NCBI GenBank assembly: GCA_037200925.1
Contig: JBBCGO010000001.1
Span: 246,366 to 310,365 of the forward strand
Source of the DNA: Candidatus Doudnabacteria bacterium
Lineage (GTDB): Bacteria; Patescibacteriota; Doudnabacteria; UBA920; O2-02-FULL-48-8
DNA length: 64,000 bases
Reading direction: 5' to 3'
The notes beneath the pieces were generated by a model. It ran no database searches and was not told where the DNA came from. It worked only from the letters and a program-made list of their open reading frames with translations. The number at the start of each line of letters is the position of its first letter. Position 1 is the stretch's first letter. This document shows positions 13,214-41,200 of this stretch, piece by piece. Position numbers and translations under genes: made by a program.

Positions 13214-13307
13214 TTTTGCCGGTTAATTTGGTTTAATTATACCCCACGGCAGACAGGGAGTCAAAAATAGTATTGGCTAATGCTTTTCATTTTTGTTTGA
13301 ATCAGTG

Positions 13308-13598
13308 CTATCCAATGGACAGACTAGACATTCCTTTAACAAAGAAAAACATTAATAAAGCAATAAGAAATAAAACAGCACTCGTTGCTTTAGCCCAATC
13401 GTTCTTGTGTTTAACACTAACCCAAAACATAAAAATTGAACCTATAATCGGTATAAATAAAATGGTAAAGAAGAATCCATTGTAGTCTGTAACATAAAAT
13501 CCTTTAAAATAATTTTCCAGTACTGGAGAGCCCCAAAATACGATATTTGGTAAAAGAACTAAAAGCAAAAAAATCCAAGTAATCTTATTGTTTAACAT
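13308..13598 (-). CDS. Small membrane protein, hypothetical
   Basis: 96 aa, 3 hydrophobic helices; AT-rich. Confidence 0.4.
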   Translation of the reverse strand: MLNNKITWIFLLLVLLPNIVFWGSPVLENYFKGFYVTDYNGFFFTILFIPIIGSIFMFWVSVKHKNDWAKATSAVLFLIALLMFFFVKGMSSLSIG

Positions 13599-13895
13599 TT
13601 AGAAACCGAAGTTAGAAAATATATAACCAAAAAATAACACTAATATACTAATTAAAAAAACTATACTAGACAAAGCACTTATTAATCTATGTCGGTTCCT
13701 AATACTTACAAAAAAACTAATAATAGAGCCAACTAAAGATACAATGGCTAAGATAAACGTTATTGTATTTAGATAATCTAAATTCCATGATTGATTTTTT
13801 AAAACAAAACTATTGATGCAAATTAACACTAAGGGCAGGACCGCAATAAACCAAAAGAACACGGATAACTTTTTATTACTCATAACTTTAGTCAA
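13599..13895 (-). CDS. Small membrane protein, hypothetical
   Basis: 98 aa, 3 hydrophobic helices; adjacent start/stop with previous ORF. Confidence 0.4.
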   Translation of the reverse strand: MTKVMSNKKLSVFFWFIAVLPLVLICINSFVLKNQSWNLDYLNTITFILAIVSLVGSIISFFVSIRNRHRLISALSSIVFLISILVLFFGYIFSNFGF

Positions 13896-13902
13896 CTATT
13901 AA

Positions 13903-16458
13903 TTATTTAATTAAATTAGTTATTGCCAAAAGCATATCATTTTTATTCGCAGGCACGGTTTGTTTTAGATCATATCCATAAGATCTAAATTCTTCCATGG
14001 TTTTAAATCCATAACGTTTCTCATTGTTTACAAGCCAAACGGTCTGACCATCAAAGATCAAGCTTCCATTGGGATGAATCTCGTCAGGATCTGTGATCAA
14101 CCCGCCCAGTTCATATGCGTTTAAATCCGCTGTCAGGACCTGGTTAAATCCGAATCCCAACCCTTTGAACGCTTTTTCCGAGGCAAATCCATACTTTTTG
14201 CCTTTGCTCCCAATCATATAGATCGTTCGATTATCCATTAAATCCAATGCCAAAGTGCCGTCTCTAAGCTTGCTAACTGGTTTCTCTAATATCTTAGCAT
14301 TATCTTGCGGTTTTTTGCTATCGCTTGTCGCAGGAGCCGCGGCTATAATACTTCCACCACCGCTTCCCCCGCCACTGCTCCCAGAAATTGGAATATAGGG
14401 CGCGGTATTAATTGCCTGTGTTAAGACTTGAACGGGATCAACCGAATTGATCGTTGAAAAAATATTTGAATTGTCAACCATAATATTATTATCATCAGAA
14501 TTTTGAGAAACATTAAAACTTATACTACTGCCGAGAACGATGCGGACGTTGTCAAACAAAGTATTGTTTGTAACCTGATCATTGTTGATATCAGAAACAA
14601 TCAAGTCAAAACTGCCATTGGCTGTCCCGGTTCCTTGAATTGTATAAGTCTGGCCTTCGTCTGTGGGCAGAAAAATATAAGCCTCGTCATCAATCACTTC
14701 GTATTGAACACCAGGAATATTATTTTCAATCGTACCGTCACTAAGCGGTCCGCTATGATTGTTTAAAGAATCATAAATCTGCACAGATACCGGACTGCGC
14801 CAATTAAGTTCCTTTCCATTCAAGGGACAGAAGTTCGGATTGGTACTAGTATTGGAACTAAGGGTTTCGTGGCCATCTAGAATTCCCGCGATGAGTTGTT
14901 TTACTCCATCCATACTTGGCAATTTTACATGCTCCGCATCTTTAACATAATATTCGGTACCTGAAGAATAGTCTGCACTGACAAATGGCACGGTACCATC
15001 GCCATTAGAATATTGTATATTTACTATTTTTCTTTTTGAGTCATCAATCGTGAAAAGATCCCTAGTAGATGCCCGTTTGCAACCAACGATATTGAATACC
15101 TTGATATCACCATAGTCCAAGTCTTCTAATTTTTTTGCAAAAAAACTTTGCGCCTGGTTAATTAGGGAAATATTCTTACCTAATTCGAACAAGTAAATAT
15201 TTGTATCGGTATAATCCAATACTTTATTTAACGAAGTGACTTTTATATAACCCTGGTAGCGATTAAAATATTTCTTATTAGGGAGCAATTCATACATTGA
15301 TGGTGAATTCAAGGCGATAGATTTGACCTCGAGTGGATTAATAAAATATGACATTGGTGTACCCAAATCACCAGAGAGTAAGGCGTTTGCTGCTTTAGGC
15401 GCTCCTAAGTGAGGAGTGCCTACAAAAATTAACTTATCAATAGTAGAAGTCCCGAATTGATTAATGTAATCTTCAGTGATTAATCCACCCATACTATGAG
15501 CAATTATATCTATTTTATCAGCTCCGGTTTGTTTTTTAATATCCAATATTTTTTGGTTCAACTCATCACGATCAATATCTAAATCAAGCCGCCAATCGTA
15601 AGGAAAGACAAATAGATTTTGGTCTAAAGTATAGCCATTATTTTCTAGATTTTGAATTAATCCTTCAAAAATTATAGTATGAGTAAAAGCAAAATCATAG
15701 CGTTCAATTATATTACCGCTATTTATACTATTAATAGAATTTCCTTCGTCGTCTAAACTTAAATGATTAGTTAAGAAATTGTGAGGTGAAAAAAAATCGG
15801 CTATCAATTCGGTTGGGTTCATCCAAATTAAACTATCCCCATCATAAAGTTCGCTACCCATGATTCCGGGTATTATCAAAACTGGTCTAAGACCCGTTGG
15901 TTCAGGAGCTGTTCCTGTTGGGTTTTGGACATCATCCACATCCACTACATATGAATAGCTTGAAACTGTTGCGACCGGAAAATTGTCCAGTACCTCAGCC
16001 CAGATGTATTTGACTGATCCACTCGCAAGGACTGGTGTGGCCGGCTCATCATTGAACACATAATTAGCCAGGTCAGTATCATATGAAAAAACATTTTGGC
16101 CGGGGATGACCTCGGGCTGGAAGGCAAATCCCGCGATTAGTGTACAAGTTGCGTCCATAAAATTGATTTTGATATTTGTGGATGCCGTGCTTGGAAATAG
16201 CAAATTTATGCTCAAAGTTATCACTGTCCCATTTTTTGAGGCAAAATGGTTGTTATCCGATCCGTAACTAAAAGCTCTTGTCCCATCTTCTTGGGACATA
16301 TCCGCAACCAAATGAGCCGAAGCCTGCGCCGAATCACAGTCTGTAGTCGGCAAAGACAGGTCAGCCCGGGTTTTTCCGGGTACAAAAAAGACGCTCAAAA
16401 CAAGCGCCGCGACTAGTATTATTCTGAATATCCGTTCTTTACATAAGCCGGAAAGCAT
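13903..16458 (-). CDS. Secreted lipase/esterase-like alpha/beta hydrolase (PGAP1/LCAT-like) with Gly/Ser linker and two C-terminal copies of a shared ~50-aa module
   Basis: 851 aa; signal peptide; IIAHSMGGLI GxSxG nucleophile elbow; GSSGGGSGGGS linker; C-terminal repeats related to C-termini of 19947..22844 and 33309..34553. Confidence 0.6.
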   Translation of the reverse strand: MLSGLCKERIFRIILVAALVLSVFFVPGKTRADLSLPTTDCDSAQASAHLVADMSQEDGTRAFSYGSDNNHFASKNGTVITLSINLLFPSTASTNIKINFMDATCTLIAGFAFQPEVIPGQNVFSYDTDLANYVFNDEPATPVLASGSVKYIWAEVLDNFPVATVSSYSYVVDVDDVQNPTGTAPEPTGLRPVLIIPGIMGSELYDGDSLIWMNPTELIADFFSPHNFLTNHLSLDDEGNSINSINSGNIIERYDFAFTHTIIFEGLIQNLENNGYTLDQNLFVFPYDWRLDLDIDRDELNQKILDIKKQTGADKIDIIAHSMGGLITEDYINQFGTSTIDKLIFVGTPHLGAPKAANALLSGDLGTPMSYFINPLEVKSIALNSPSMYELLPNKKYFNRYQGYIKVTSLNKVLDYTDTNIYLFELGKNISLINQAQSFFAKKLEDLDYGDIKVFNIVGCKRASTRDLFTIDDSKRKIVNIQYSNGDGTVPFVSADYSSGTEYYVKDAEHVKLPSMDGVKQLIAGILDGHETLSSNTSTNPNFCPLNGKELNWRSPVSVQIYDSLNNHSGPLSDGTIENNIPGVQYEVIDDEAYIFLPTDEGQTYTIQGTGTANGSFDLIVSDINNDQVTNNTLFDNVRIVLGSSISFNVSQNSDDNNIMVDNSNIFSTINSVDPVQVLTQAINTAPYIPISGSSGGGSGGGSIIAAAPATSDSKKPQDNAKILEKPVSKLRDGTLALDLMDNRTIYMIGSKGKKYGFASEKAFKGLGFGFNQVLTADLNAYELGGLITDPDEIHPNGSLIFDGQTVWLVNNEKRYGFKTMEEFRSYGYDLKQTVPANKNDMLLAITNLIK

Positions 16459-16530
16459 ATTTAGAACTAATTGGTCTTTTTTACTCTATCAATTGCTTAC
16501 GCTTAAGTCAAGAGGGTTCCTCCAACTATT

Positions 16531-22844: not shown

Positions 22845-22957
22845 ATTTGCGAGGAGTCCCGATTATTCGGGACGACGAAGCAATCGGCTCTCGGCAGGAT
22901 AAAGGGAGCTCCGCGGTTTAGACTGCCACGCTCCGACTAAAACGTCGGAGCTCGCAG
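22842..22957 (+). repeat. 116-bp structured repeat, copy A (inverted partner at 35410..35525, 3 mismatches)
   Basis: starts at the TGA stop of the surface-protein gene; internal hairpins GTCCCG-attatt-CGGGAC and CTCCGAC-taaaac-GTCGGAG. Confidence 0.85.
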
Positions 22958-22962
22958 ATGCG

Positions 22963-23376
22963 CTAAATCGTAGATCCAAAACAACCCCCTAAATTCGGGG
23001 GTTGTTTTTTTTGGCTAAAAATATTGGGGTATGTTTCCATCAATTTTTTGAGTGAGTCGGTATCTCCAGAGATGCGCAAAACCTCGGCAAATAAACGCTG
23101 GTCTCTCAGATTGCTTTCGGAGCGCATGATCCCGTACAGTACTATCCTCGGATCAGGGCTGTCTTTGGAACTGCGCAGTTCAATTCCTGATTTTGCGGCC
23201 ATTGCTTCTACCTGCAGCACCACGGGCTTATCCGGCGTGGTCGGCTGTTTGAATTTTTCCAGGACGTTTTGATAAGCTTTTTCATCTATCTGCCCGCCTG
23301 ATTCCTTATAGCGCTCAAAGCTCTTCTCGGGGCTGTCCTCGGTTTCTTTTTCGTTTCCTTGTGATTCCCTAGCCAT
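22963..23376 (-). CDS. Hypothetical acidic protein
   Basis: 137 aa; 3' end runs through the terminator hairpin so true stop may be earlier. Confidence 0.35.
   Translation of the reverse strand: MARESQGNEKETEDSPEKSFERYKESGGQIDEKAYQNVLEKFKQPTTPDKPVVLQVEAMAAKSGIELRSSKDSPDPRIVLYGIMRSESNLRDQRLFAEVLRISGDTDSLKKLMETYPNIFSQKKQPPNLGGCFGSTI
22980..23012. terminator. Bidirectional rho-independent terminator
   Basis: AACAACCCCC-taaatt-CGGGGGTTGTT flanked by A-run and T8. Confidence 0.7.
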
Positions 23377-24601: not shown

Positions 24602-24841
24602 CTAGATATCAAACTCCTCAGGATCAAAACCCAATTCTTTAGCCGCTTCTAAAAAATCTTTTTTCTGAGGTTTTTTGATCCCTTTTTGCTTCGCATAAGT
24701 CTGGTTCAGATGAACGAGAATCCTGTCTATCTCTTCCTGGCTAAAGCCTCCTTCCATAAGCGAATTTATCCATCCGTGCATGTCTTCATCAGGAACAGAA
24801 GCGCCCACAATTTCACCTCGGTTTTCAAATCGATTTTTCAT
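24602..24841 (-). CDS. Hypothetical protein
   Basis: 79 aa acidic ORF. Confidence 0.3.
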   Translation of the reverse strand: MKNRFENRGEIVGASVPDEDMHGWINSLMEGGFSQEEIDRILVHLNQTYAKQKGIKKPQKKDFLEAAKELGFDPEEFDI

Positions 24842-24847
24842 GAATCC

Positions 24848-25522
24848 TCATTTATTAATAAATAAATGTGCATATTTCTCTCCAAAGTGTCGATACGCAC
24901 ACCATTTACAGTCTGGGTTTTCTGGAGGAACCGGACCTTCCAGCAATTTATTTACATCTTTCATGAATTTCAGAAAGTTTTCTCTTTCCAAATCTACTTC
25001 AACCCATTTGGGTGGAAAGGTTATTATTGCCTGATTTTTTTCAAATCTAACCTGATCTGGATACATGATAACTAACCCTAATTTAGTTATTTGTTTAGAT
25101 TTTCCTTTTTCTGGAAATTCAAATGCGTAATGATAAGCCTGAAGTTGCTTCTGGTATTTAGCGCCCTTTTCTTCATCAGGAGTCGTAATTTTAAAATCGA
25201 TAACTAGGTAAGTTCCATCCTTCTGCCTTACAAGAAGATCATATTTCCCTTTAATATACGCGTTGGTTTTCGGGATCAATTTTGATTCTACATATCCTTC
25301 CTGACTTTCCACTATACCTTCAGGCAAAAGCGGTGAGAGTTCCCGAAGGTTATTTCCGACCAACTTTCCCTGAAGAAGTGCGTTCAAAGTTGAAAAAACA
25401 CCGGGAAATGGCATCGAGGGTCGCTGCATCCCGTGTTTTATTTTAAGATAATAACAACACTTACATTCTTCGTATAAGTATGCAAAATCTGAAGGGCTTA
25501 GTTTGTACTTCTTATTTTCCAT
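24848..25522 (-). CDS. Cas4/RecB-like PD-(D/E)xK nuclease with Fe-S cysteine cluster (no CRISPR context)
   Basis: 224 aa; N-terminal CKCCYY cysteines, LVIDFKIT (D..K catalytic), QLQAYHY (QxxxY), C-terminal CKWCAYRHF CxxC. Confidence 0.55.
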   Translation of the reverse strand: MENKKYKLSPSDFAYLYEECKCCYYLKIKHGMQRPSMPFPGVFSTLNALLQGKLVGNNLRELSPLLPEGIVESQEGYVESKLIPKTNAYIKGKYDLLVRQKDGTYLVIDFKITTPDEEKGAKYQKQLQAYHYAFEFPEKGKSKQITKLGLVIMYPDQVRFEKNQAIITFPPKWVEVDLERENFLKFMKDVNKLLEGPVPPENPDCKWCAYRHFGEKYAHLFINK

Positions 25523-25540
25523 AAACCTATAAATTATCTT

Positions 25541-25556
25541 TTAATTACGTAATTAA
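25541..25556. promoter_or_regulatory. 16-bp perfect palindrome TTAATTACGTAATTAA about 20 bp upstream of the Cas4-like gene (second copy at 31858)
   Basis: self-complementary; located within the likely promoter of 24848..25522. Confidence 0.55.
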
Positions 25557-25667
25557 ATATGTTATTTATAAATCCAGTTCGTCAATATCAATACCCGGAT
25601 CTTCCAAACGGGTTAAAGCTACCTCTGGATCGACGAGTTCATTCGCCGTTCTTTCCCTAAGTCCGTC

Positions 25668-27552
25668 TTACGCAATAGAAACATATTTTAATAATTCTTT
25701 TTTATTATTTTTTTTATCTTTTGGTTTGTATCCTACAAAATTACAAATATCAATAATCTTTACGATAAATTTATCAAATTCTTTTTTACTCATTGTTATA
25801 TTATTGCCAACCAGATTGCTAGTCTGCCATTCAGCAGACACGTTAAGTGGGGCTTGGGGTCTATGACCTTGAATATTAAAAATATCGTGATCTTTTTGTG
25901 TTATCCAGCCAGCACCAACTTCTGATACAGCGCCCCAAGATCTAGCCATATGATCACTAGTAACATAAATAACAAACATTTTTTTATCAGAATAACTATC
26001 GACAAAAAAACTACGAAGATATTCAAAAATACCTATACGGTTAGGGATACGGGAGTCCGCATTGTCCGAATTTGAATAAATAATATCCTCATCCGGAAGT
26101 CCATTAAAAGATAACATCTTATATATAACATCAGACAAGGGTTTGTCTTCTAGAGTCTGACTAATCAAAATTCTTTTTTTCTGCGAATCAACTCTTCTCT
26201 TGATACCAACAATTGGAAGAAATTTATTCATCTCATCCCGGATTATTCTCTGTATGGCTGGAATACTGCCACCAAATCTGCTAGCGATCTTGCTGGTTGC
26301 CCCACCTGACGCTGCCGTTTTGTACTCATCTACTTTTTTTCTTAATTCTTCTTCGTCTTTCTTCTCTCTTTCTTGCTTTTGCTGTTCTTTCTTCTTTTTA
26401 TTAAATTGTACCCAAACATTACGCATGTTAATTATACGAGGCAGTAATTCATCTCTCACATATTTTATTACTTCTATATATCGAAGATCATCTGTCTTAT
26501 ATCCTTGCCGGTTACTTAATGACATGTCTGGTAGCTCCGTGGCTTCGAAAAGGTCAATATGTAATTGTCCAACTATAAACACTTCTTGAAGTTTATTAGC
26601 ACCAACAACAGGTAGAATATTATATTCACCTAGTTTACCATTGGAGAGTATTGAAATAAAATTATCAGGAAAATCGTTCGAGTCTTTCTTTCTGTCTTTT
26701 GTAGTTCTGTAAGCCCCTACCCAACCTTTTATAATTACTTCATATTTTTTATCTTCGCCTTTTCTGTTGACTAAGTTCAACGGGATAGCCACGGCACTGT
26801 CTTTTTTAAGAAGACCACCTTCTATCTCATTATTTTTGCTAAATCCGGAATCAAAGTACTTAGCAAGTCCCTGATACTCTTTGCCAAAAGTAATCAAAGC
26901 ACCAAGGCCTCTAATTATCTCTTTATCAAAATTATCAATAATAATTGTATCTTTATCAGTGATAATATGAATTCTAAAATCTTTACTAACTAATGGAAAA
27001 ATTTTAAGTAAATTGTTGCGTATTGCGGTTACGGTGGCATTTAGTCCATATTGCGGATTTGTCATAACTATTGACGTGCCATTTTTCCGAATATATTTAA
27101 ATTTAATATCTTTATTAGCGATTGCTTCCAATCTATGATCTTCGCCTACGTTTCGAGAAAGAATAAAACCAGATTTTTCATTATCTTTTACAGTCATCAC
27201 TGAAACTTTTTCTGAAACTGAAAGAGCAGCTAACTTGCCAACACCTTTGCGACCCATTCTTTTACGAGTCCCGTCTTCAGTATAGACGTCTTTTTTTGTT
27301 GTGCGAGTCTCAATAGCTACATCAAGGTATTTTTTTTATATCACCATCTTCATAAGACATCCCAATACCATCATCTTCAACAATTATACGATCCTCTTTT
27401 TTTATAATGTATACATTTGAAGCCATCGCATCATATGCGTTTGCAATTAATTCAGCTAAGACATAATAAATATTAGTATAAAGACTCGGTCCCAACAATT
27501 CCAAAACTCTAGGACTTATATTGAGTTTATATTCACGGTTATTATTATTCAT
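25668..27552 (-). pseudogene. MORC-like GHKL (HATPase_c) ATPase, interrupted by -1 frameshift at A8 homopolymer (27331..27338); possible phase-variable gene
   Basis: N-terminal 76-aa ORF has ELIANAYDA (N box) and DDGIGM (G1 box); downstream 529-aa ORF begins with GRKGVGKLA (G2 box); removing one A from the A8 run joins both frames into one ~634-aa protein. Confidence 0.65.
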
Positions 27553-28637
27553 ACAAGCATTCTAATATGCTCTTTAATACTCTTTCCGATAACCGATCCA
27601 AGTCTAACTGGCACAGCATTTCCTATAAACTTAGCAATATTCTTACTTACGATGGATGTTTTCTTATCCACAAACATATAATCCATAGGAAAAGTTTGAA
27701 AGAGGGCGGCCTCTCGCAGACTTATTGCTCTATCTTGGTCCGGATGGCCAAACCGGCCATTTCCAAGACCAATACATTGCGTTGTCATTGTGGGAGCAGG
27801 TTGGTCCCATTTCATCCTACCATATACGGTACTACGATAAGTTTTTCCAGATTCACTCTTATGACACTTAAGTTGCAAATCCTCACTCCAACTTTTTGAA
27901 TTACCTCCGTTGACAGGGGTTGCTTTAATTCTTCGTAAATTAATATCATTTAATTTCCTTGCTCTATGCAATGGATCTTTATTGCTAATATCCCCATCTT
28001 TTAAAGGCTCCAGGTCCGCAATCACATCACGGACAGTGACACGGTTATTTATATGGGTTCTTTTTATTAAAGAAATATTCCCAAATTTAGAAGCTAAAAG
28101 CACAAGTCTTTTTCTCCTCTGCGGGACTCCAAATTCAGAAACATCCACAACCTCGTACTTGTAATTATAATTATTTTGCTTAAGTGTTTTTACAAACTTA
28201 GCAAAAACTGGATACTTTTTCATGTTAGCAAGGCTGCTAACATTTTCCATTGAGACTATATCAGGCTGAGTTTCAGCAATAAGCCTAGCAAATTTATCTA
28301 AAGGCTCAAGCTGTTTTTTAGTTATTTTGTTCAAGTTTAATTTTGAGAATGGCTGACATGGAGCGCATCCTGCAAGTACTCGTATGGTTTGATTTTTTGG
28401 CCCGAACAATTTATCAATCTGCTGAGGAGTTACATTAATAATGTCTTGATCAATAAACTTTGTTTTATTGTTGTATTCATAGCCGAACTTACAGCTACTA
28501 TCATTGTCTATGCCTGCAACAACATCAATGCCTTCTTTAATTAGTCCGTGCGTTAAACCACCAATACCACAGAATAAATCAATAACTTTTATTCTTTTTC
28601 TTTTATTTCTTTTCATAGTTTTATTATTTGCTTTCAA
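27549..28637 (-). CDS. dcm: DNA (cytosine-5)-methyltransferase
   Basis: 362 aa; motif I VIDLFCGIGGLTHG, motif IV PCQPFS, ENV motif; ATGA overlap with downstream ATPase start. Confidence 0.85.
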   Translation of the reverse strand: MKANNKTMKRNKRKRIKVIDLFCGIGGLTHGLIKEGIDVVAGIDNDSSCKFGYEYNNKTKFIDQDIINVTPQQIDKLFGPKNQTIRVLAGCAPCQPFSKLNLNKITKKQLEPLDKFARLIAETQPDIVSMENVSSLANMKKYPVFAKFVKTLKQNNYNYKYEVVDVSEFGVPQRRKRLVLLASKFGNISLIKRTHINNRVTVRDVIADLEPLKDGDISNKDPLHRARKLNDINLRRIKATPVNGGNSKSWSEDLQLKCHKSESGKTYRSTVYGRMKWDQPAPTMTTQCIGLGNGRFGHPDQDRAISLREAALFQTFPMDYMFVDKKTSIVSKNIAKFIGNAVPVRLGSVIGKSIKEHIRMLV

Positions 28638-28718
28638 CTATGGCTATTTCGCCTTCACTCAATCCATACAACTTATATACTTCCTGATCAATTTTACTAC
28701 AACAATCAAGCTGCAGTT

Positions 28719-29813
28719 TTATTTCCCAGATTTAGTTCTATTGTCATCTTTGCACAACATCCGACAATTTTCTGAAATTGTTCTTCCTCCTTCGTGCCAA
28801 GGTTTTATATGATCAGCTTCCATCTCGGAAATATCGAAATGTTTTTTGCAAACAGGGCAAATACCTTTTTGTTTCTCATAAGCTTCGCGCTTCATCTTTT
28901 CTGTAAACGCCCGAATTGAAAGGTATTTTTCTTGCCTCGTCAAAACATACGGATAAATACCAGACTTCTTGGTAACATCTTCGTCTTGCATTAACTCTTT
29001 AATTTCCGTTTCCAATTTAACAGAACTTAGTTTTTTATCTTTGAATTCATTATGCAGCTCGCCCCATTCCACATGAGCCATTTCGCGCCGATAATTTGGA
29101 AATGTCTTTTGCGCCCAGGAAATTACGTCCTGAAAATATTCCCACAACTTGTCAGCGCTTTTGTCTTTCTGATGTTTGCCCATGTAATCTTCAATTTTAT
29201 CATCACTGATCCAGCGGAGTGCCGTTTCCAGATACTCTTGGCGGTTCAATGCTCCACTCACATAGTCATGAGCCAGTAAATACGCCGGCGCGTTGCTCTT
29301 ACTGAAATAACGCTTGGCATCGGTTACCCAAGGCCCTGAATAAATAGCGTTCAACAATTCTTGAGGTGTAAGTTTCTCGCCAGCGGTATTGATGACCTTA
29401 AACCACGCCAGCTTTTCATCATCCGTACCTTCGCAAAAATATACCATGAGCGGATAGTCGCGGATATTCTTTTTCTCTTCTTCCGTCAAGTTATCGAAAT
29501 ACATCTGGTACCCGCGGTTCATAACGTTAAAATCCCCGGCCAAAAAGTTACAGATGCTTACAGTGCGCTGCTGGCCATCAAGGATTTCGAAACTACCACC
29601 ACTGTTTTTCACCCAGTACATCGCGTTTAGAGGAAACCCGCCCATCACCGAATTAATAACCGCGATCTGCTGTTCGGGTCTATAAATAAACTCGCGCTGG
29701 TATTTCGGGCGGATATTCAGACTGCCGCCATACCCAACGACACCCTCCTCTTCAATGTTTTTATACCCGTCAACTATTTTATGTATCGGAATTTGATGTA
29801 GTTCAATTTTCAT
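28719..29813 (-). CDS. DUF262 (ParB-like nuclease domain) plus C-terminal HNH endonuclease (GmrSD-like architecture)
   Basis: 364 aa; DGQQRT motif of DUF262; C-terminal CPVCKK...ADHIKPWHEGGRTISENCRMLCKDDN HNH motif. Confidence 0.7.
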   Translation of the reverse strand: MKIELHQIPIHKIVDGYKNIEEEGVVGYGGSLNIRPKYQREFIYRPEQQIAVINSVMGGFPLNAMYWVKNSGGSFEILDGQQRTVSICNFLAGDFNVMNRGYQMYFDNLTEEEKKNIRDYPLMVYFCEGTDDEKLAWFKVINTAGEKLTPQELLNAIYSGPWVTDAKRYFSKSNAPAYLLAHDYVSGALNRQEYLETALRWISDDKIEDYMGKHQKDKSADKLWEYFQDVISWAQKTFPNYRREMAHVEWGELHNEFKDKKLSSVKLETEIKELMQDEDVTKKSGIYPYVLTRQEKYLSIRAFTEKMKREAYEKQKGICPVCKKHFDISEMEADHIKPWHEGGRTISENCRMLCKDDNRTKSGK

Positions 29814-29846: not shown

Positions 29847-30476
29847 TTAAATATTAAAATACCTACAGATAAACCGTTTTAATCTAAAAAAATTAAGACC
29901 TGTTAAAAGCCAAATAAATGGTACAACTTTAGAATTTTTTTCTTTTTCTAATTCTTTCCTGAGACTAAGATATGCTGTACGAGCTTGCCCATCATGCTCT
30001 CCGCCTATTAATTTATGGACTACAACAAGTAAATCTTCAGCTCTCTTTTTTATCTCTGGTTTTATATTGTCCCAAACCTCAGCGTTAGAAAGAAAATTAT
30101 GGTGTAATGCTACTCCTTGATTGAAATTACTTAGTGCCTGCTTAGCAGAAACTAGGGTTTTAATAAGCTCTGGATTAGTAAATAAACTACCGGCAGTAGC
30201 GATTGAATTGTCTATGGCCAAGCTTTCTATTTTAAAAACAATTTTTCTCAAAAGTTCTTTATCCTCCCTTATCTCTTGAGATCTGCTTTCCGGCCAATTC
30301 GTGCTAAGCCAATATTGAACTCCCTCGTCTAGTTCGGCTTGGATAGCATTTAATACACTACTTCTAGTATGCCAAATTCCTAGCCGATAAATAATCCAAG
30401 CAACTATAGCTGTGATAACAACTGATGACCCACTTGGATGCTCGCTAATTGTTGTAAATATTGAATTTATGTCCAT
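29847..30476 (-). CDS. Hypothetical protein with N-terminal TM segment
   Basis: 209 aa; SSVVITAIVAWIIY hydrophobic segment. Confidence 0.35.
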   Translation of the reverse strand: MDINSIFTTISEHPSGSSVVITAIVAWIIYRLGIWHTRSSVLNAIQAELDEGVQYWLSTNWPESRSQEIREDKELLRKIVFKIESLAIDNSIATAGSLFTNPELIKTLVSAKQALSNFNQGVALHHNFLSNAEVWDNIKPEIKKRAEDLLVVVHKLIGGEHDGQARTAYLSLRKELEKEKNSKVVPFIWLLTGLNFFRLKRFICRYFNI

Positions 30477-30518: not shown

Positions 30519-31622
30519 TTATTTTTTCAAACGGATTAAAATACGAGGAAATGTATTTTTCAGTCCTGCTGAAGTTTTTAAGACCGGACCAGCATTTAAG
30601 TCACTATAATTTTTTGCATCGATAATTGTATAAACCTTGCTCTTTAAAGCAGGGTCACCAGCTCCTCTTTTAGCCATACCAATAATTTCGAACTGTTCAG
30701 GATTGTACTTATCAAGGAACGTAATCGGAACACCCATGACACTATTGTAATCTTGTGGAATATCTAATTTTTTCGAAACTTCAATAGCATCGTAGTTCTC
30801 GTATTTAGGATATTCTTCGGGATTGTATGTTTTGTAAAAAGTCATTTTCTCATGACGCTTTGTGGTATCAAGGTTTGTAAACCATAAAATACGACCAAAG
30901 CTAAAATACTTTATACCATTCACAACTTTCTTTCTGGATTCTGTATCTATGTCGTATTCTTTGGGGACTTGAAACCATTTTGTCCCGCCATTGTCATAGC
31001 CAAGCCACAATTTATTTTCTTTGATGAGTTTAAAAATTTCTTTATAGGTTATGGCATTCTGGTCCCCTAGAATCAAAAACTTTTTTTTGTGTTCAACAAG
31101 CTGTGCCACGTAGTCACGAAAAAGAGAAAACGGCGGATTGGTGACCACTATATCTGCTTGGTTGAGAAGTTCTATACATTCCTCACTGCGAAAGTCTCCG
31201 CCGTCTTTGAGGGAGGTTGAAACATTTGCATCGTGCCGGAGCAACCATTCGACATCAGAGAGGCCAATAGCGCCATCAGAATTGGAATCTGGAACTTCAT
31301 TAATTTCAATTTTAAACGGCTCTTTGCCTTTCGGTTTTAGGCCTTTGACTTCAAGGAGTGGTAACTGTCCTCCCGCAATTGGCGACTTTGTATAACTGGT
31401 GGTGATTAACTTTTTGAGACCGAGAGCATTAAAATTAGCAGCGAAATATTTAAAAAAATTACTCTCGAACGGATCATCGCAATTGCAATAAATAATCTTA
31501 TCCCGAAACTGTTCTTTGTAATGTTTTAGTTCTTTTTCAATATCAACAAGCTGAGTATAAAACTCGTCTTTCTTAGCTGCGCTTGCTTTGTGTAAGTTGC
31601 TATTTAATGATTTATTTGACAT
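30519..31622 (-). CDS. DNA methyltransferase, N6-adenine/N4-cytosine class (NPPF motif)
   Basis: 367 aa; DIVVTNPPF catalytic motif IV; AT-rich. Confidence 0.6.
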   Translation of the reverse strand: MSNKSLNSNLHKASAAKKDEFYTQLVDIEKELKHYKEQFRDKIIYCNCDDPFESNFFKYFAANFNALGLKKLITTSYTKSPIAGGQLPLLEVKGLKPKGKEPFKIEINEVPDSNSDGAIGLSDVEWLLRHDANVSTSLKDGGDFRSEECIELLNQADIVVTNPPFSLFRDYVAQLVEHKKKFLILGDQNAITYKEIFKLIKENKLWLGYDNGGTKWFQVPKEYDIDTESRKKVVNGIKYFSFGRILWFTNLDTTKRHEKMTFYKTYNPEEYPKYENYDAIEVSKKLDIPQDYNSVMGVPITFLDKYNPEQFEIIGMAKRGAGDPALKSKVYTIIDAKNYSDLNAGPVLKTSAGLKNTFPRILIRLKK

Positions 31623-31948: not shown

Positions 31949-32197
31949 TTAAGCAGGATTGTAATTTAGCACTCGCCAAGTATTATGTTCTTTGATAGCT
32001 TGAATGACTTTTTGATTTTTTCCTTTTACTTTTCCGGCAGAATATCCACTCCAAGTATTAAATGCATCATCGCCCTTTATGGTAAATATGACCAAAGACC
32101 CGTTTGGAATTTTGTTCCAAACTCTCGGATTCTTAGATGCATATTTATCAAACTCAAAAGAAAGCTTGATATTTTTCTGTACAAAAAGTGTATTCAT
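31949..32197 (-). CDS. Hypothetical protein
   Basis: 82 aa; terminator immediately downstream. Confidence 0.4.
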   Translation of the reverse strand: MNTLFVQKNIKLSFEFDKYASKNPRVWNKIPNGSLVIFTIKGDDAFNTWSGYSAGKVKGKNQKVIQAIKEHNTWRVLNYNPA

Positions 32198-32225
32198 AGT
32201 AGTTTTAAATTAATATTTTTTATTT

Positions 32226-32537
32226 CTATTTCGATATTAGATAATTTTCTTTGATTTTTAGAAAATCTCTTTCAATTAATAATTTAGCCTGTATAAAGGC
32301 CTTATTATTATCATCTATGCCTAATGGTACCCAATATTCTCTGTCATGTAAATGATACTTATGCACATGGCCTAAACCATGACAATTATCAATCCTCATT
32401 ATAGTTTTCCATTTTGAATCAATTCTGGCGTAGTATTGAACCACAAATTTAACAATCTTGCCTCTATTCCGGCTAAATTTAATCCTTAATTTATCATCTT
32501 CAGTCAAAAATCTAGTATTATCCACTTCCCTGATCAT
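32226..32537 (-). CDS. Hypothetical protein
   Basis: 103 aa; AT-rich. Confidence 0.35.
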   Translation of the reverse strand: MIREVDNTRFLTEDDKLRIKFSRNRGKIVKFVVQYYARIDSKWKTIMRIDNCHGLGHVHKYHLHDREYWVPLGIDDNNKAFIQAKLLIERDFLKIKENYLISK

Positions 32538-34847: not shown

Positions 34848-35372
34848 TTAATAAAAAGAATAATTTTTTAGTTCTTTCCTTATGGCTCTGTAATCCGGAA
34901 CTGTCTGCCGCACCAGGGCCCAGAAATTTTCCGAATGGTTCATTTCCTTCAAATGGCACAGTTCGTGCACGATTATGTAATCAGCCTGATTGAGCGGCAG
35001 TTGCGTGATCCTGTGATTGAAATTCAGGTTTTTCCGCACAGAACAGCTTCCCCAGAGACTTTTATGATCTTTTATGCTCACACGGCCATAATTAAACCGG
35101 TAATGTTGGTTATATAGTTCTATCCGGCTTTTCACAAAGGCCAGAGCATCGGAGCGGCTCATGGCGGGTGCCAGCGGGATAGATTTGCGATTTTTCTGAA
35201 AATTTATTTTCTTGGCTATCCAAGCGGATTTGGAGCGGATAAATTCCTCAGCTGAGGCGACGGAAACCCTCAGAGGTTTGGTCACGACCACCCGCCCGCC
35301 GGGATATATTGTGATGCGGATGTGCCTGGCTCTGGCGCTGGACCTGATCTGATATTCGATCTCTGTTTGCAT
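34848..35372 (-). CDS. YgjP-like (DUF45/M48-related) zinc metallohydrolase
   Basis: 174 aa; IIVHELCHLKEMNHS HExxH motif in the characteristic C-terminal position. Confidence 0.65.
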   Translation of the reverse strand: MQTEIEYQIRSSARARHIRITIYPGGRVVVTKPLRVSVASAEEFIRSKSAWIAKKINFQKNRKSIPLAPAMSRSDALAFVKSRIELYNQHYRFNYGRVSIKDHKSLWGSCSVRKNLNFNHRITQLPLNQADYIIVHELCHLKEMNHSENFWALVRQTVPDYRAIRKELKNYSFY

Positions 35373-35409
35373 TCTGTAATTTTAAGATAAAAAAAGAAAA
35401 ATATCGAAT

Positions 35410-35525
35410 CTGCGAGCTCCGACGTTTCAGTCGGAGCGTGGCAGTCTAAACCGCGGAGTTCCCTTTATCTTGCCGAGAGCCGATTGCTTCGTCGTCCCGA
35501 ATAATCGGGACTCCTCGCAAATTCA
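35410..35525 (-). repeat. 116-bp structured repeat, copy B (reverse complement of 22842..22957)
   Basis: 113/116 identical to copy A in inverted orientation. Confidence 0.85.
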
Positions 35526-37386: not shown

Positions 37387-38277
37387 TTATTTCGTGAACA
37401 CGATGTCCCAGTAGCCGGTCGTATTTTCCGATTGGCCGGTGAAGTCATACGAGTTGGCATGCTTCAGCATCCGGGGTTTCAGGTTCCATAATTTGGCCAA
37501 AGCGATGGCGGTTTTGATCGAAGCCGGCGAATCCATATGGCGCAGGGTCAGTCCCCCGCCATCCATATTTTTTATCATATTGCCGGAATCCGCATCTAGC
37601 TGGTTGGCCACGTCGGTTGCTTGGTAATGCGAAAAGTCTACGCTGATCACGACTGTGATCTCATCTTTATATTTAGCCAGAACTTGCGCAACTTTTTCCA
37701 CTTCGGAATCGGGAGCAGCCGAGGAATAAATGATGGGCACAATGGTGCTGTCAGGATACAGCAGTTTGATGAACATGCTGTGCACGCCGATGGAGTGCTC
37801 GCCGTCAAAGCATCCGTCTATTTCCGAAACTCCGCCGTTCTTTATCAGATCATCAATGATGGCTGTGTTGCTGTCCAGAATTCCGTAAGGAGTATAGTAT
37901 GGGCGCTTGGTCGTGGACGCGGCCTTTTTACAGTGTTCATAATGATCGGGACCGACCACCACAAAGGTCTGGTGCGGGCTCTGCGATTGCTTGAGAGTAT
38001 TATACAGCTGTGCGATCAGAGAAACTGCGGTCGGCAAATGATGGGAAGTGATAGAGATCTGAGCGTTCGGAAGATTCGCCAAAGCTTTATACTGGGCCAT
38101 GGCCTGCTTGATCAGATCGCCGTATTCAAATCCCACTGCAGCCACGGGAGAAGAGCCTATGGGCGCAGTGGTAATACCTGCGATTTTCCCGCTTTGCCTG
38201 GTTGCGGCAAAAAAGCCGAGGCTCAGAAGCAGGACGCCCAGAATAAAGACTATGCCTGTCCGGGTGCTATTTGACAT
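37387..38277 (-). CDS. MEMO1-family protein (AmmeMemoRadiSam system protein B-like)
   Basis: 296 aa; GPDHYEH, EHSIGVH and VISVDFSHY resembling the MEMO histidine-rich metal site; N-terminal TM/signal. Confidence 0.55.
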   Translation of the reverse strand: MSNSTRTGIVFILGVLLLSLGFFAATRQSGKIAGITTAPIGSSPVAAVGFEYGDLIKQAMAQYKALANLPNAQISITSHHLPTAVSLIAQLYNTLKQSQSPHQTFVVVGPDHYEHCKKAASTTKRPYYTPYGILDSNTAIIDDLIKNGGVSEIDGCFDGEHSIGVHSMFIKLLYPDSTIVPIIYSSAAPDSEVEKVAQVLAKYKDEITVVISVDFSHYQATDVANQLDADSGNMIKNMDGGGLTLRHMDSPASIKTAIALAKLWNLKPRMLKHANSYDFTGQSENTTGYWDIVFTK

Positions 38278-41200
38278 TGATCTTGACCGTGTCGGAGAAG
38301 TTCACATCATCAGGATTGAGAGCTGACTGGATCTGTGCCGGGCTGGCCGTAAAGTCGCCTTTGTTCACTGCTCTCGCATAGTACTGGACTGCCGGCTCGC
38401 ATTGCGAAAAAGTACTGAAGTTCTTCGGGACGGTAAAGTAGAGTTTATTATCCACCACTTTATCCGGGTACCACAGGCAGTTGTAGCCCTGGTCAATTCC
38501 CAGAGTGTACGGGTCAGTCACGGGCTTTAGGCCGCTCGGCAGATAATCCACGATCTGATAATCGCCGTTTAGGGCTTTGGCCCCGACCTTGGGGAAAAGT
38601 TTGACTTTCACAATGTCGGAATCGTTAAAGCTGGTGGTGGCCTTGCCGTTGACCACGTATTGGCGGGTCAGGGATAGGTTGGCATCGCGGGCCACGGTAG
38701 CCGAATTCAGGCTTTGTTCAAAGAAACTTGAGACTTGCATATCGCCGGAAATATTGCTGAAGTTCAGACTCTTAAGTTCATCTTCAGAAAGCGTAACGCT
38801 GTAGGTATCGCCGTTCTGCAGACTCACATCCTCTGACCTGGCATTGGTCTGGTAATGCAGTTTGGCGGCGCTCTGGCTCGTTTGCGCGATCGCAGACTTG
38901 ATGAACATTACTCTTTGTAAAATATCCAGATCCTTGGCCGGCGGATGACCCTGCATATAATTCCACAGTAAGTCTGCATCATCGGTCAGGTTCAGGTCTG
39001 AGGCCAGAACCGCGGCCGTGTCACTCAGCTTGATCTGCGCATCATTCTCGCCAAGTTCGGCAAACCAGGCCTGTGAGCCGTCAACGTGCAGGTGCGGGTG
39101 AATATCTTTCTGATACAGATTTCTTGCTTCTTCCAGATCTCCAAGCTTGACTAAGCCTAACGCTACATAGACCTTATCCTGCCAGGTCAAGTCTGCAACT
39201 GTCTGGATGTCCTGCAATCTCGATAAGACCGGTTTGCCAAGGCTGGCCAGGCCATACAGCGCTAGGGCCTGCCTGTGCAGGTCAGTTTTCGTGTCATGCA
39301 AAGCTGCGGTAAAATAATCACCCACGCTGTTCTGCGACACATAGCCTCCGGCCAGGTCCGAAACATACGCGCTCAGTTCCAGGTCCGGATCGCTGTAAGG
39401 AAGAAGCCTGATGCCTCCCGCATCCGAAGAAACATATGCGCTTAAGTCCAGTTTATCTTGCGGCTGCGCTTTGAAATAATTACTCAGGATATCCGCGGCA
39501 AAATAGCTTCCCACAACCTGGTCCACGCGCAGGCCTCCGGAATAACTGCTATAGAGCAGGTCCTGATAGAATTTTCCTTTACCCGCATCCATGAACTCAA
39601 GCTTCGTGAACCCGCCCGGGTTTCCGGCCAGGCTTTGGTTGCCGGATACGACTTTTACTGTGCTGACCGAAGGCTTGGTATAGTAGCTGTTGGAAACGGT
39701 GATGTGTTTTTTCAAAGCATCTGACAGGGCTCCTTGTTTTCCTGAAATGACCAGATCAAATTCGCCTTGAGGCAGATTGCCGAGGGTGATGGTGGCCTGA
39801 TGGTTTTTCAGGGTCACGGTCTGGTTGAATTTCAAGCCGTCGCTGGCGATGCTGACCTGCGCATCCTGGTCCGTATGGTATCCGGTGCCGTACAATCCGA
39901 TCTTGACCTGCGGGTTGTCGCCGGTAAGATAAGAGTCGGACAGGACCGCGTTGACGAACAGGGGCAGGGTTGAAGGGACGAGTTTTGTGTTCTCGCCGGC
40001 TTTGAGAGTGTTGGTGTCAAACGACCTGGCCGTCACTCTCCAGGAAGTGATATTGTCCGCGGTGGTAAAATCCATTTTGGCATTGCCGGAAGCATCCGTC
40101 TGCAAGGTCTGGAATGCTGCGGTGTCAATAAAATTAGACCTTACCGAAGTGCCGCCTTTTTCCGCATTGTGCACGTAGATCCCGTCCGCAAAATAAGTAT
40201 GGTATTTGCCGACAATGATATTATAAACAGTGGTGTGCGGCGCGTTCCGATGCGCAATGGACCTGATGATCTGGGTTCGTCCGTCAGTTAAGACCAGCGT
40301 ATCGCCGACCTTGGCATTGCCCGCAAGATCCCAGTCGCCATTGAGGAATATCTTATGCTCTTCGGTCACCTGCAAATTGTTGTTGATGATCAGGAAATCA
40401 TCAACCTCGTGGCTGGATATGCCCTGCACGATCGCGGGCACCAGTGTGCGGCTGGACGGATCTTTAAAGGTCAGCAGCTCGTCGCCAATCTTGATATTTT
40501 CAATTCCTATGGTATGCCCGCTGGCGAGCAGGATCTGCGTGCCCGCAGTAAAGCAGCCGCCTTTTTCCGCGCCGCCTCCGGCCGCATATTTCGGCAGCAA
40601 ATAATCCGTGGAGCCGGTAAGAGGATAGGTGTAGATGGTTTGGTACAGGCTGTCCAGGATCTGCTGCTGCGAAGTATAGGGCAGGACATGGAACACGGCT
40701 TCATCCACTATCGCCACATTGGTCTGGGCGGCCAGGGGCTTTCCGTCCTTGTCCGTGATGTGGAATGAAAGCGCAACCTTGTCCCCCGGCCGGTAGCTGA
40801 CCTTGTCCGAAGAAATGTTGATCTTGATGTTATTGTCGCTGGCCTTGAACAGCGCAAACACTGAATTGCTTTCTTCAAACCCGTACGGGCCCAAGACCAC
40901 GGCCATGTACTGGACCGAAGGCGCAAAGTCATTGCCGAAGTTCTCGGTAAAGGTCGGGCTCTTGGCCACCACGGCTTTGGAAATGCTGTTCTGGAACCGG
41001 TAGTAGAGGATGGGCTGATCGGCGATATTCGTAGTCCCTGATCCCTGCACGGTCAGGTTCACCGGGTCATTGAAAGAAAATTCTTTCTGGTAGGTTTCGT
41101 TGTTGATGTTCAAGGAAAGGCCGGACGGGTTCCAGACATCATAGTTAGCATAAAAAGCGTAAGTCTGGGCCGTAGCAATGCGTCCCTGCGCATCGGTGAC

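Follow-up and report, generated by a model that had tools for sequence, protein, structure and literature searches.

Juxtaposed defence modules, including a predicted Dcm and GHKL-TIR pair, in a Candidatus Doudnabacteria chromosome

The type II enzyme R.HgiDII carries a GHKL domain at its N-terminus, and no fold is assigned to the C-terminal half of the HgiDII family in PMC2441816. A related architecture, paraMORC4, was defined in silico by Iyer, Abhiman & Aravind (2008), in whose published description GHKL and S5 domains are followed by a C-terminal TIR domain in proteins encoded in restriction-modification neighbourhoods. GHKL domains are also found fused to nucleases, as in VcSduA, whose anti-phage defence needs both the ATPase and the nuclease residues (PMC12137116). 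Among TIR proteins, SpbK of the Bacillus subtilis element ICEBs1 (PDB 9phb) is an NADase that acts by abortive infection, and a Gly and a Trp in its helix alpha-C are required for filament formation and NADase activity. In the literature searched, we found neither an experimental test of paraMORC4 nor an experimental study, biochemical or genetic, of a GHKL-TIR/Dcm system.

We analyzed a stretch of 64,000 nucleotides (the window) of the chromosome of a member of Candidatus Doudnabacteria (Patescibacteria). According to ORF and Pfam calls, the minus strand of the AT-rich stretch 24848-29813 contains genes for a DUF262+HNH protein, a C5-cytosine methyltransferase (Dcm), a GHKL ATPase with a frameshift, and a PD-(D/E)xK protein of Cas4-like type. 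The original prediction of four co-oriented genes in an AT-rich stretch was borne out by the ORFs, the Pfam matches and the GC content, which is 0.33-0.42 for the island genes and about 0.47-0.53 for the flanks; the DGQQR motif, the methylase motifs PCQ and ENV, and the HNH residues can be read directly in the sequence. The same prediction took the four genes to be one system and proposed to check the conservation of their neighbourhood. We ran this check, and the four genes are not co-conserved as a unit. The region is a set of juxtaposed independent defence modules, co-oriented by chance, because the co-conservation counts given below tie neither the DUF262-HNH gene nor the Cas4-like gene to Dcm and the ATPase. 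The earlier interpretation is therefore supported in part: the genes and the overlap between Dcm and the ATPase gene are real, but the four-gene unit is not.

A promoter and terminator scan, of which the promoter part used the sigma-70 consensus that may not apply to Patescibacteria, found no strong terminator-like site between the genes from 31622 to 24602 and gave no boundary between the modules; the side-by-side modules are therefore possibly all co-transcribed, and some functional cross-talk is possible. The tRNA scan gave no tRNA that could be an integration site, and no integrase or transposase genes were seen in or beside the island. An Rfam scan from 22.0 to 36.5 kb, run to account for the 100-bp inverted repeats, returned no match. 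Palindrome avoidance was tried as a way to find the methylase targets and was abandoned, the window being too small: all 6-mer palindromes had |z| < 1.5. The counts were 3 versus 4.1 expected for GTCGAC (uninformative at this window size), 23 versus 26 expected for GAATTC, and 135 versus 183 expected for TCGA, which is modestly low in a window too small for conclusions.

The first module (module 1) is a predicted classical type II restriction-modification pair. It starts with an EcoRI-family N6-adenine DNA methyltransferase gene (30519-31622, minus strand; Pfam EcoRI_methylase, 5.4e-139; PADLOC MTase_II, 7.7e-122), which lies outside the stretch covered by the original prediction and was missing from it. 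The predicted type II restriction endonuclease of 364 aa (28719-29813, minus strand) combines a ParB-like DUF262 domain containing DGQQR (GmrSD_N/DUF262, 2.3e-20) with an HNH domain (6.5e-12), and its residues 1-364 match positions 1-372 of the PADLOC profile REase_II PDLC03418 over the full length (1e-131). Between the two genes lies an ORF of 209 aa (29847-30476, minus strand) that is conserved with neither of them; it has no match in Pfam, PADLOC or NCBIfam, and the only homolog in 165 related loci is that of an identical island (L001). An EcoRI-family methylase gene is present upstream of the DUF262-HNH homologs, on the same strand, in 72 of 80 metagenomic loci (directly abutting in 54, about 0.6-1.15 kb apart in 13 and farther away in 5), and for 7 of the 8 loci without it the contigs are too short to tell. 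Dcm, the ATPase and the Cas4-like gene are found in 0/80 of these loci. The EcoRI-family methylase, and not Dcm, is thus the predicted cognate partner of the DUF262-HNH enzyme. We also considered that the DUF262-HNH protein might be a type IV (modification-dependent) enzyme, and rejected this because of its strict pairing with a methylase. Like the type IV enzymes GmrSD and BrxU (DUF262 + DUF1524), it has a DUF262/GmrSD_N domain with DGQQR, but it ends in a classical HNH nuclease domain in place of DUF1524, and the methylase pairing is that expected for a modification-blocked rather than a modification-dependent enzyme.

At the other end of the island, a gene for a stand-alone PD-(D/E)xK (RecB/Cas4-like) protein of 224 aa is located at 24848-25522 (minus strand). 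It had been described as a Cas4/RecB-like nuclease with Fe-S cysteines. The nuclease assignment holds (PDDEXK_1, 1.1e-11), but the scores for Cas4 are below the cut-offs (Pfam Cas_Cas4, 19.2 versus 22.7 bits; TIGR00372, 31.3 versus 65 bits), and an Fe-S cluster is not established because all four invariant cysteines lie in CxxC pairs (C20/C23 and C205/C208), an arrangement that does not match the Cas4-type pattern of one N-terminal Cys plus a C-terminal CxxCx5C. The other invariant residues of the family are D95, D109-x-K111 and Q126xxxY130. Its homologs occur in varied gene contexts, no cas gene was seen near it in the island or in seven homolog loci, and the gene is absent from all 82 distinct ATPase loci and all 80 DUF262-HNH loci. 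We consider it a predicted stand-alone Patescibacteria family (module 3), unrelated to modules 1 and 2. An ORF of 79 aa (24602-24841, minus strand) begins 6 nt past this gene, and a homolog of it is absent from related loci.

Module 2 consists of Dcm and the ATPase, which are predicted to be a self-contained pair. The Dcm open reading frame spans 27549-28637 on the minus strand, and from the ATG at 28616 it encodes a C5-cytosine DNA methyltransferase of 355 aa (27549-28616; Pfam DNA_methylase, 2.9e-58), the predicted modification half of the module. Its stop codon overlaps the start codon of the ATPase gene (ATGA), as had been noticed before, and the two genes are predicted to be translationally coupled. 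In 76 of the 82 loci, which are distributed over bacteria and archaea, a Dcm ortholog (45-74% identical) accompanies the ATPase-family gene. A DUF262-HNH gene is present in only one of the 82, that of Ca. Endomicrobium (L024), where an M.EcoRI-like/DUF262-HNH module and a Dcm-ATPase module are adjacent, and the minimal two-gene version of Dcm and ATPase stands alone in Desulfuromonas soudanensis. A vsr gene adjoins in 35/82 loci and is absent from 47/82 and from the window.

After frame correction, the second gene of module 2 (25668-27552, minus strand) encodes a protein of 627 aa in which a long helix joins a GHKL ATPase domain to a TIR domain at the C-terminus; in the window it is split into two ORFs (27322-27552 and 25668-27257). 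The predicted GHKL ATPase was confirmed by a match to HATPase_c_3 (3.2e-18). True MORCs are set apart from paraMORCs by a MORC-specific signature motif (Iyer et al. 2008), and we label the protein MORC-like and not MORC. The GHKL domain and the S5-fold transducer domain directly after it occupy residues 1 to about 350 (26502-27552, minus strand), and Bergerat-fold ATP-binding motifs I-IV are all present (E34, N38, D61-G62-x-G64, G100-x-x-G103-x-G105 and G158-T159) and invariant in 20 homologs. In an AlphaFold model of the full-length protein of moderate confidence (pLDDT 70.8), the module is followed by a predicted single helix of about 70 residues (356-424; 26280-26486, minus strand), a linker that is rich in Lys and Glu and possibly adopts a coiled-coil structure. 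Full-length members of the family were found in 201 species genomes, with a patchy distribution across domains. The protein is the predicted sensor/effector half of module 2.

The TIR domain, which the original prediction had not noticed, covers residues about 455-627 (25671-26189, minus strand). It belongs to a subtype that is almost restricted to proteins of this architecture, about 620-650 aa long, and SpbK-like proteins of 250-300 aa form the nearest outgroup; by sequence and structure the closest relative is SpbK. The catalytic-type residue E544, the Glu of helix alpha-C, aligns with SpbK E192 and does not vary in alignments of 20 and of 43 homologs. Also invariant are the equivalents of SpbK G194 and W197, the Gly and Trp of the alpha-C interface; the equivalent of D158 in the BB-loop is not conserved. 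Substrate binding may differ from that of SpbK because the first-strand loop motif (I-S-Q-T-L-E-D-K in the window, I-S-H-T-x-x-D-K in the family) departs from H-S-S-x-D of SpbK.

On balance, we favor the interpretation that the region is an island of independent modules in which module 2 is a methylation-sensing TIR NADase system with a probably intact ATPase gene. Dcm would mark the host sites, and the GHKL/transducer module would recognise unmethylated sites on incoming DNA. Its ATP-driven dimerisation or clustering would then bring together the TIR domains, which, by analogy with SpbK, SARM1 and AbTir, would form composite active sites; the assembled TIR domains would hydrolyse NAD+, possibly yielding a signal nucleotide, and NAD+ breakdown would lead to arrest of the infected cell. 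That unmethylated DNA activates the TIR domain is a step that we purely infer. More tentatively, with a chance that we put a little short of even, Dcm and the ATPase-TIR protein would constitute a restriction-modification system whose output is abortive infection, using methylation-based self/non-self discrimination and a TIR NADase (or a TIR-made signal) instead of cleavage, the sensor-effector of which would be reused within class 1 DISARM.

An unlikely, though not negligible, alternative is that module 2 encodes a restriction enzyme proper, whose TIR domain acts on DNA at or near unmethylated sites, by nuclease activity or N-glycosidic cleavage, and functionally stands in for the cleavage role of the C-terminal half of the HgiDII family; defence would then be direct and not abortive. 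In their published account, Iyer et al. (2008) departed from the NADase reading and put forward nuclease activity or allosteric nucleotide binding as possible functions of the TIR domain. Against a TIR domain that acts on DNA, the closest relative is a demonstrated NADase, and the catalytic Glu and the oligomerisation residues are all conserved. A precedent is also missing, since to our knowledge no bacterial TIR protein is a site-specific DNA-cleaving enzyme. We give very little credence to a role of the GHKL-TIR protein as a MutL-like accessory that, together with Dcm (and Vsr), would serve in very-short-patch repair or regulation, with a TIR domain that binds nucleotides or proteins. In its favor, Vsr is stimulated by MutL in E. 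coli, vsr adjoins in the 35 loci mentioned above, and allosteric binding is the other possibility raised in the account of Iyer et al.; however, Vsr goes with most m5C methylases whatever their partner, and it is missing from the window and from the majority of the loci. Further points against an accessory role are the invariance of the catalytic-type Glu and of the oligomerisation residues, the homology with an actual restriction enzyme, the location of the gene within DISARM operons and a distribution that is patchy across domains, as is typical of mobile defence genes.

Two other readings concern the integrity of the module and its limits. The frameshift in the ATPase gene is caused by a T8 homopolymer (27330-27337; A8 on the coding strand) that is T7 in two other assemblies, and removal of one base from it restores the 627-aa protein, an exact match of which exists in these two assemblies. 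If the frameshift were real, module 2 would be a decaying remnant consisting of an ATPase-TIR pseudogene and an orphan methylase Dcm, as might be argued from the T8 carried by the window sequence and from the NCBI MAG annotation, which gives only a fragment of 529 aa. We regard this as improbable: the window and a 12.6-kb Logan contig with the intact gene differ by zero substitutions and two indels, both T8 versus T7 and the second located in an unrelated gene, and the intact allele is present in two independent assemblies. The frameshift is thus most likely a homopolymer assembly error, because otherwise identical assemblies differ only as T8 versus T7, and the organism itself probably has an intact gene. 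Phase variation at the A8 tract was considered but set aside as the leading idea, given that the only other difference is a T8/T7 run in an unrelated gene and that the Lys-Lys codons are not conserved in homologs. As to the limits of the module, a single ATP-dependent restriction or defence system with two nucleases, made up of DUF262-HNH, Dcm, the GHKL ATPase and the Cas4-like protein, would agree with the co-oriented and closely spaced genes, their low GC in common, the lack of a strong terminator-like site between them and the adjacency of both modules in Ca. Endomicrobium. Such a system now seems highly improbable, and the co-conservation test has largely refuted it: of the 82 distinct ATPase loci, none contains the Cas4-like gene and one contains DUF262-HNH; none of the other three genes occurs in the 80 DUF262-HNH loci, 72 of which pair DUF262-HNH with a methylase of its own; and the two-gene unit of Dcm and ATPase is found alone.

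If the NADase mechanism that we favor holds, module 2 would be a compact two-gene system in which a MORC-type ATPase links the detection of unmethylated DNA to a TIR enzyme. Such a route from epigenetic DNA sensing to NAD+ depletion, built on a DNA clamp related to eukaryotic MORCs, would be experimentally new, and the system would offer a tractable bacterial model of how MORC-like GHKL clamps read DNA. It would also imply effector swapping on one sensor scaffold, with TIR versus the C-terminal half of HgiDII/BbrUII, and might account for extra protection in composite DISARM loci. The hosts of module 2 range from Patescibacteria and archaea to Proteobacteria, Firmicutes and Bacteroidetes, and cultured ones (Desulfuromonas soudanensis, Gilliamella apis, Marinobacter and Listeria monocytogenes) make the 2008 in silico prediction of paraMORC4-TIR testable. 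For annotation, the lesson is that tightly packed, co-oriented defence genes in an AT-rich island are not necessarily one system.

Module 2 can be compared with several known systems. It shares the TIR fold and the aligned Glu with SpbK, which differs in being a single-gene system of roughly 266 aa that has neither ATPase nor methylase and is triggered by a phage portal protein via its own N-terminal domain. As in VcSduA (paraMORC3/Shedu type I-D), an N-terminal GHKL ATPase module is predicted to control a C-terminal effector; the effector of VcSduA, however, is a PD-(D/E)xK (DUF4263) nuclease and not a TIR domain, and its gene stands alone without a methylase partner. Similarity to class 1 DISARM (drmD-drmMI-drmA-drmB-drmC, with or without drmMII) is found in Dcm, which scores as DrmMII in PADLOC (PDLC02651, 4.8e-76), whereas drmA, drmB, drmC, drmD and drmMI are absent from the island proteins and from the large ORFs flanking them in the window. 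In about 18 of the 82 species, the ATPase-TIR gene is located between drmMI and drmA of class 1 DISARM operons, with Dcm upstream; the description of the published Serratia class 1 DISARM has no such ATPase.

The original prediction recognised no named system in these genes, which needs qualification in two respects: the GHKL-TIR architecture has been described as paraMORC4 (Iyer et al. 2008), and the N-terminal part of the ATPase matches BbrUII/HgiDII. As far as the published description of paraMORC4 allows comparison, module 2 has the same GHKL + S5 + TIR architecture, the same neighbourhood theme (Dcm in 76/82 loci, Vsr in 35/82 and SF2 helicases, which are the DISARM helicases, in about 18/82) and the same patchy distribution. 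The published loop motif is Hx[ST]xD, compared with H-T-x-x-D in the present family and Q-T-L-E-D in the window; the H/D spacing is kept, but the S/T is shifted by one position. The match to the BbrUII/HgiDII family (NCBIfam NF050001, 1e-60), whose members pair with an m5C methylase and recognise GTCGAC, involves only residues 8-412 of the ATPase and profile positions 1-385 of 659. The whole protein scores 206 bits, far under the 550-bit cut-off, and a Halobaculum control protein, aligned to positions 1-659, reaches 801 bits. Positions 386-659, the family's C-terminal half, have no counterpart in the module 2 protein, which has the TIR domain instead; for that half, a PDB sequence search gave no meaningful match and Pfam no nuclease domain, and a D...IDLK pattern is visible by eye, for which we claim no fold. 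Common to both are the homologous GHKL + transducer region, the long helical linker after it, the gene order of methylase then enzyme, and a Dcm partner of the same subfamily, with that of the window being 48% identical over 352 residues (full length) to the Halobaculum methylase that partners a true HgiDII/BbrUII-family enzyme. Because methylase subfamily and GHKL + transducer module are the same, module 2 is, at the level of sequence, a sibling of the HgiDII/BbrUII system.

The AT-rich stretch of the window (~24.6-33.0 kb) has a gene GC content of 0.30-0.42, versus 0.47-0.53 outside, and all of its genes are located on the minus strand. This island is flanked by ordinary chromosomal genes (YgjP-like, ice-binding-like, dienelactone hydrolase, Memo-like, alpha-2-macroglobulin, GreA and Nramp). 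Read along the minus strand, it starts with a Zn-ribbon protein gene (32992-32633; ORF call and domain search), followed by genes for a DUF7718 protein of 103 aa (32537-32226) and a DUF5647 protein of 82 aa (32197-31949), both assigned by domain search. Next are an EcoRI-family adenine methylase gene (31622-30519; Pfam, 5e-139), the orphan 209-aa ORF orf209 (30476-29847) and a gene combining DUF262 (DGQQR) with HNH (29813-28719; domain and PADLOC searches). The remaining genes encode Dcm (28616-27549; domain search), a GHKL ATPase in two frames (27552-25668; domain search and sequence inspection), a PDDEXK_1/Cas4-like protein (25522-24848; Pfam and NCBIfam-type profile searches) and orf79, a 79-aa ORF (24841-24602; ORF call). 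ORF calls and profile searches confirmed the presence of the DUF262-HNH, Dcm, ATPase and Cas4-like genes, and inspection of the sequence confirmed the ATGA overlap between the Dcm and ATPase genes. Four proteins of the window have identical counterparts among NCBI entries MEJ0021254-59, from a 964-kb contig of a Candidatus Doudnabacteria (Patescibacteria/CPR) metagenome-assembled genome.

Two 100-bp inverted repeats, 97% identical, are located at 22860-22959 and 35408-35507, and are the only copies in the window. The 12.5-kb segment between them comprises the AT-rich island and several genes of native GC content; no recombinase or transposase was found within this segment, and the repeats have no Rfam match. 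An independent Logan contig, a sister assembly of the same island, has both its ends exactly within these repeats. The DUF7718 and DUF5647 gene pair (31949-32537) is flanked by strong terminator-like hairpins (32582-32568 and 31938-31911) and may constitute a cassette of its own within the island. A second AT-rich patch (13000-16500, GC 0.33-0.42) may also have been acquired horizontally; it codes for a protein of 851 aa that contains an LCAT/lipase-type alpha/beta-hydrolase domain. The 1850-aa alpha-2-macroglobulin-like protein (38267-43819) contains a HINT/intein-like insertion at residues ~1088-1219, between the bait-region and A2M domains. According to a maximal-order Markov model, TCGA is under-represented in the window (135 observed vs 183 expected) and GATC and AATT are over-represented; the window word counts did not reveal significant avoidance of six-base palindromes.

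The original prediction held that the DUF262-HNH, Dcm, ATPase and Cas4-like genes form a single four-gene defence system. We compared 82 distinct loci of the ATPase family, obtained by taking 80 from 201 species-level matches (spanning Patescibacteria, archaea, Proteobacteria, Firmicutes, Bacteroidetes, Verrucomicrobia and others) and adding a few by exact look-up. Of these loci, 76 carry an orthologous Dcm (45-74% identity): directly upstream of the ATPase gene on the same strand, usually overlapping it, in 52, abutting it downstream in seven, at ≤3 kb in four and at a distance of 7-9 kb in 13. The six loci without a Dcm match are truncated. None of the 82 loci contains the Cas4-like gene, orf209 or orf79, and one (L024) contains DUF262-HNH. 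In Desulfuromonas soudanensis, the Dcm and ATPase-TIR genes lie as a pair alone amid housekeeping genes. For the converse test, 80 metagenomic loci of DUF262-HNH homologs were used, in none of which Dcm, the ATPase or the Cas4-like gene was found. Instead, an EcoRI_methylase-family gene is located upstream on the same strand in 72 (abutting in 54, after a small gap as in the window in 13, and farther away in five); seven of the remaining eight contigs are too short to judge whether the methylase is present. Thus, the gene neighbourhoods uphold the Dcm-ATPase link but assign DUF262-HNH another partner. The prediction is partly supported: its domain calls and its defence theme were right, but its single four-gene system was not. 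The terminator scan detected no strong terminator-like hairpin between 31622 and 24602, and the modules may therefore be co-transcribed; functionally, they are separable units even so. The valuable core of the locus is the pair of Dcm and the MORC-like ATPase-TIR (module 2). Both restriction-modification modules adjoin, in another order (Dcm, ATPase-TIR, EcoRI-family methylase, DUF262-HNH), in a Candidatus Endomicrobium macrotermitis MAG (L024:8931-14106), with 47-62% identity to the window genes.

The DUF262-HNH protein aligns over its full length with a PADLOC model of type II restriction enzymes (1e-131). This full-length match and the pairing observed in its homologs argue that it belongs with the EcoRI-family adenine methylase, which lies outside the segment covered by the original prediction. 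The intervening orf209 matched no family, and 165 related loci contain no homolog of it; in about 13 of the 80 DUF262-HNH loci, a gap as long as one gene is present at its position. The Cas4-like protein scores under both Cas4 cut-offs and belongs to a family common in Patescibacteria, whose invariants are D95, D109-x-K111, QxxxY and two CxxC pairs (four cysteines). Three of seven homologs are located immediately after restriction-modification genes (HsdR twice, Tsp45I and Mrr once; loci including L168 and L170) and four among housekeeping genes. One of the HsdR-adjoining loci also has a YgjP-like gene; that of the window (34848-35372) is on the island's far side from the Cas4-like gene.

The predicted frameshift in the ATPase gene was also borne out: its two reading frames meet in a T8 run (27330-27337), where a one-base deletion results in a 627-aa protein. 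Both the Logan assembly (SRR28211699) and another NCBI contig encode exactly this protein. The 12.6-kb Logan contig differs from the window by two indels and no substitutions, and both indels are T8 in the window versus T7 in the contig. At 23012, the second of these indels affects an unrelated gene, altering the C-terminus of a 137-aa ORF (22963-23376). Two such indels without substitutions fit better with a homopolymer error in the window assembly than with pseudogenisation or programmed phase variation, and their occurrence at both sites suggests that this error is systematic.

ATPase residues 8-412 align with positions 1-385 of the NCBIfam BbrUII/HgiDII model (659 positions; E 1e-60), with a score of 206 bits that is far under the 550-bit cut-off, and residues 356-424 are predicted to form a long helix. 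The C-terminal 170 residues do not match the BbrUII/HgiDII family; they match SpbK, a TIR NADase (7.6e-7 for the full protein, 2.3e-7 for the domain alone). When the TIR domain was searched against 1.84 billion representative proteins, only 149 clusters were recovered. Nearly all strong matches are proteins of 620-650 aa whose TIR is in the same position, or fragments thereof, and the weak ones are SpbK-like proteins of 250-300 aa. A full-length homolog, 49% identical, is encoded by Listeria monocytogenes FDAARGOS_57 (L087; NZ_CP030101.1, 1894336-1896123). This is the chromosome of a cultured pathogen; PLSDB lists the record as a plasmid, without annotation in that table. The Listeria homolog could serve as an experimental model. 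Orthologs are also carried by Desulfuromonas and Gilliamella.

For module 2 as a whole, we infer a mechanism of Dcm protection, GHKL sensing and TIR NADase output. Dcm would protect host sites, and its motif is predicted to be a palindrome containing TCGA, such as GTCGAC or MTCGAK. The GHKL/transducer module probably reads the unmethylated site, because it and the methylase subfamily are inherited together in both sibling families. Since GHKL ATPases dimerise upon ATP binding and TIR NADase active sites form only through TIR-TIR assembly, DNA- and ATP-dependent clustering would switch on NAD+ hydrolysis, by which the infected cell would be stopped. The main rival explanation is that the TIR attacks DNA directly. 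In Iyer, Abhiman and Aravind (2008), where the GHKL-TIR architecture is described in silico as paraMORC4, its TIR is speculated to be a nuclease or a ligand-binding site.

A class 1 DISARM operon encloses the ATPase-TIR gene in about 18 of the 82 species, with unambiguous PADLOC scores; Alcanivorax limicola and a Stenotrophomonas are examples. The order is Dcm(DrmMII)-[Vsr]-DrmD-DrmMI-[ATPase-TIR]-DrmA-DrmB-DrmC: Dcm, which scores as DrmMII, is upstream of drmD, often together with Vsr, and the ATPase-TIR gene lies between drmMI and drmA (L004, L028, L032, L042, L044, L045, L056, L060, L061, L064, L069, L070, L074, L077, L079, L081, L083 and L085). A methyl-directed type II enzyme gene also adjoins ATPase-TIR in L060, L061 and L085. 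Vsr accompanies the Dcm and ATPase-TIR pair in 35 of the 82 loci; neither Vsr nor DISARM core genes were found in the window. In the published Serratia class 1 DISARM system, DrmMII methylates MTCGAK, and a GHKL-TIR-type ATPase is unmentioned.

The type II enzyme R.HgiDII has a GHKL domain at its N-terminus, and its C-terminal domain is unassigned (PMC2441816). As a control, we used a Halobaculum plasmid protein, encoded after a Dcm gene, whose full-length score of 801 bits exceeds the BbrUII/HgiDII cut-off. The window Dcm shares 48% identity with this Dcm from end to end, variable region included; the Dcm partners within the TIR-bearing family show the same level of identity. The Dcm identity and the shared GHKL N-terminal region argue that module 2 and the HgiDII/BbrUII system are siblings: they share the methylase and the GHKL/transducer/helix scaffold, but module 2 has a TIR in place of the HgiDII/BbrUII C-terminal domain. 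For a related GHKL fusion, the GHKL-nuclease VcSduA (paraMORC3/Shedu), anti-phage defence has been demonstrated, and it requires both activities. The literature searched contained no experimental work on a GHKL-TIR/Dcm system. Judged by sequence, the Dcm and MORC-like ATPase-TIR pair is a new variant among the GHKL-type restriction systems, one anticipated by comparative genomics.
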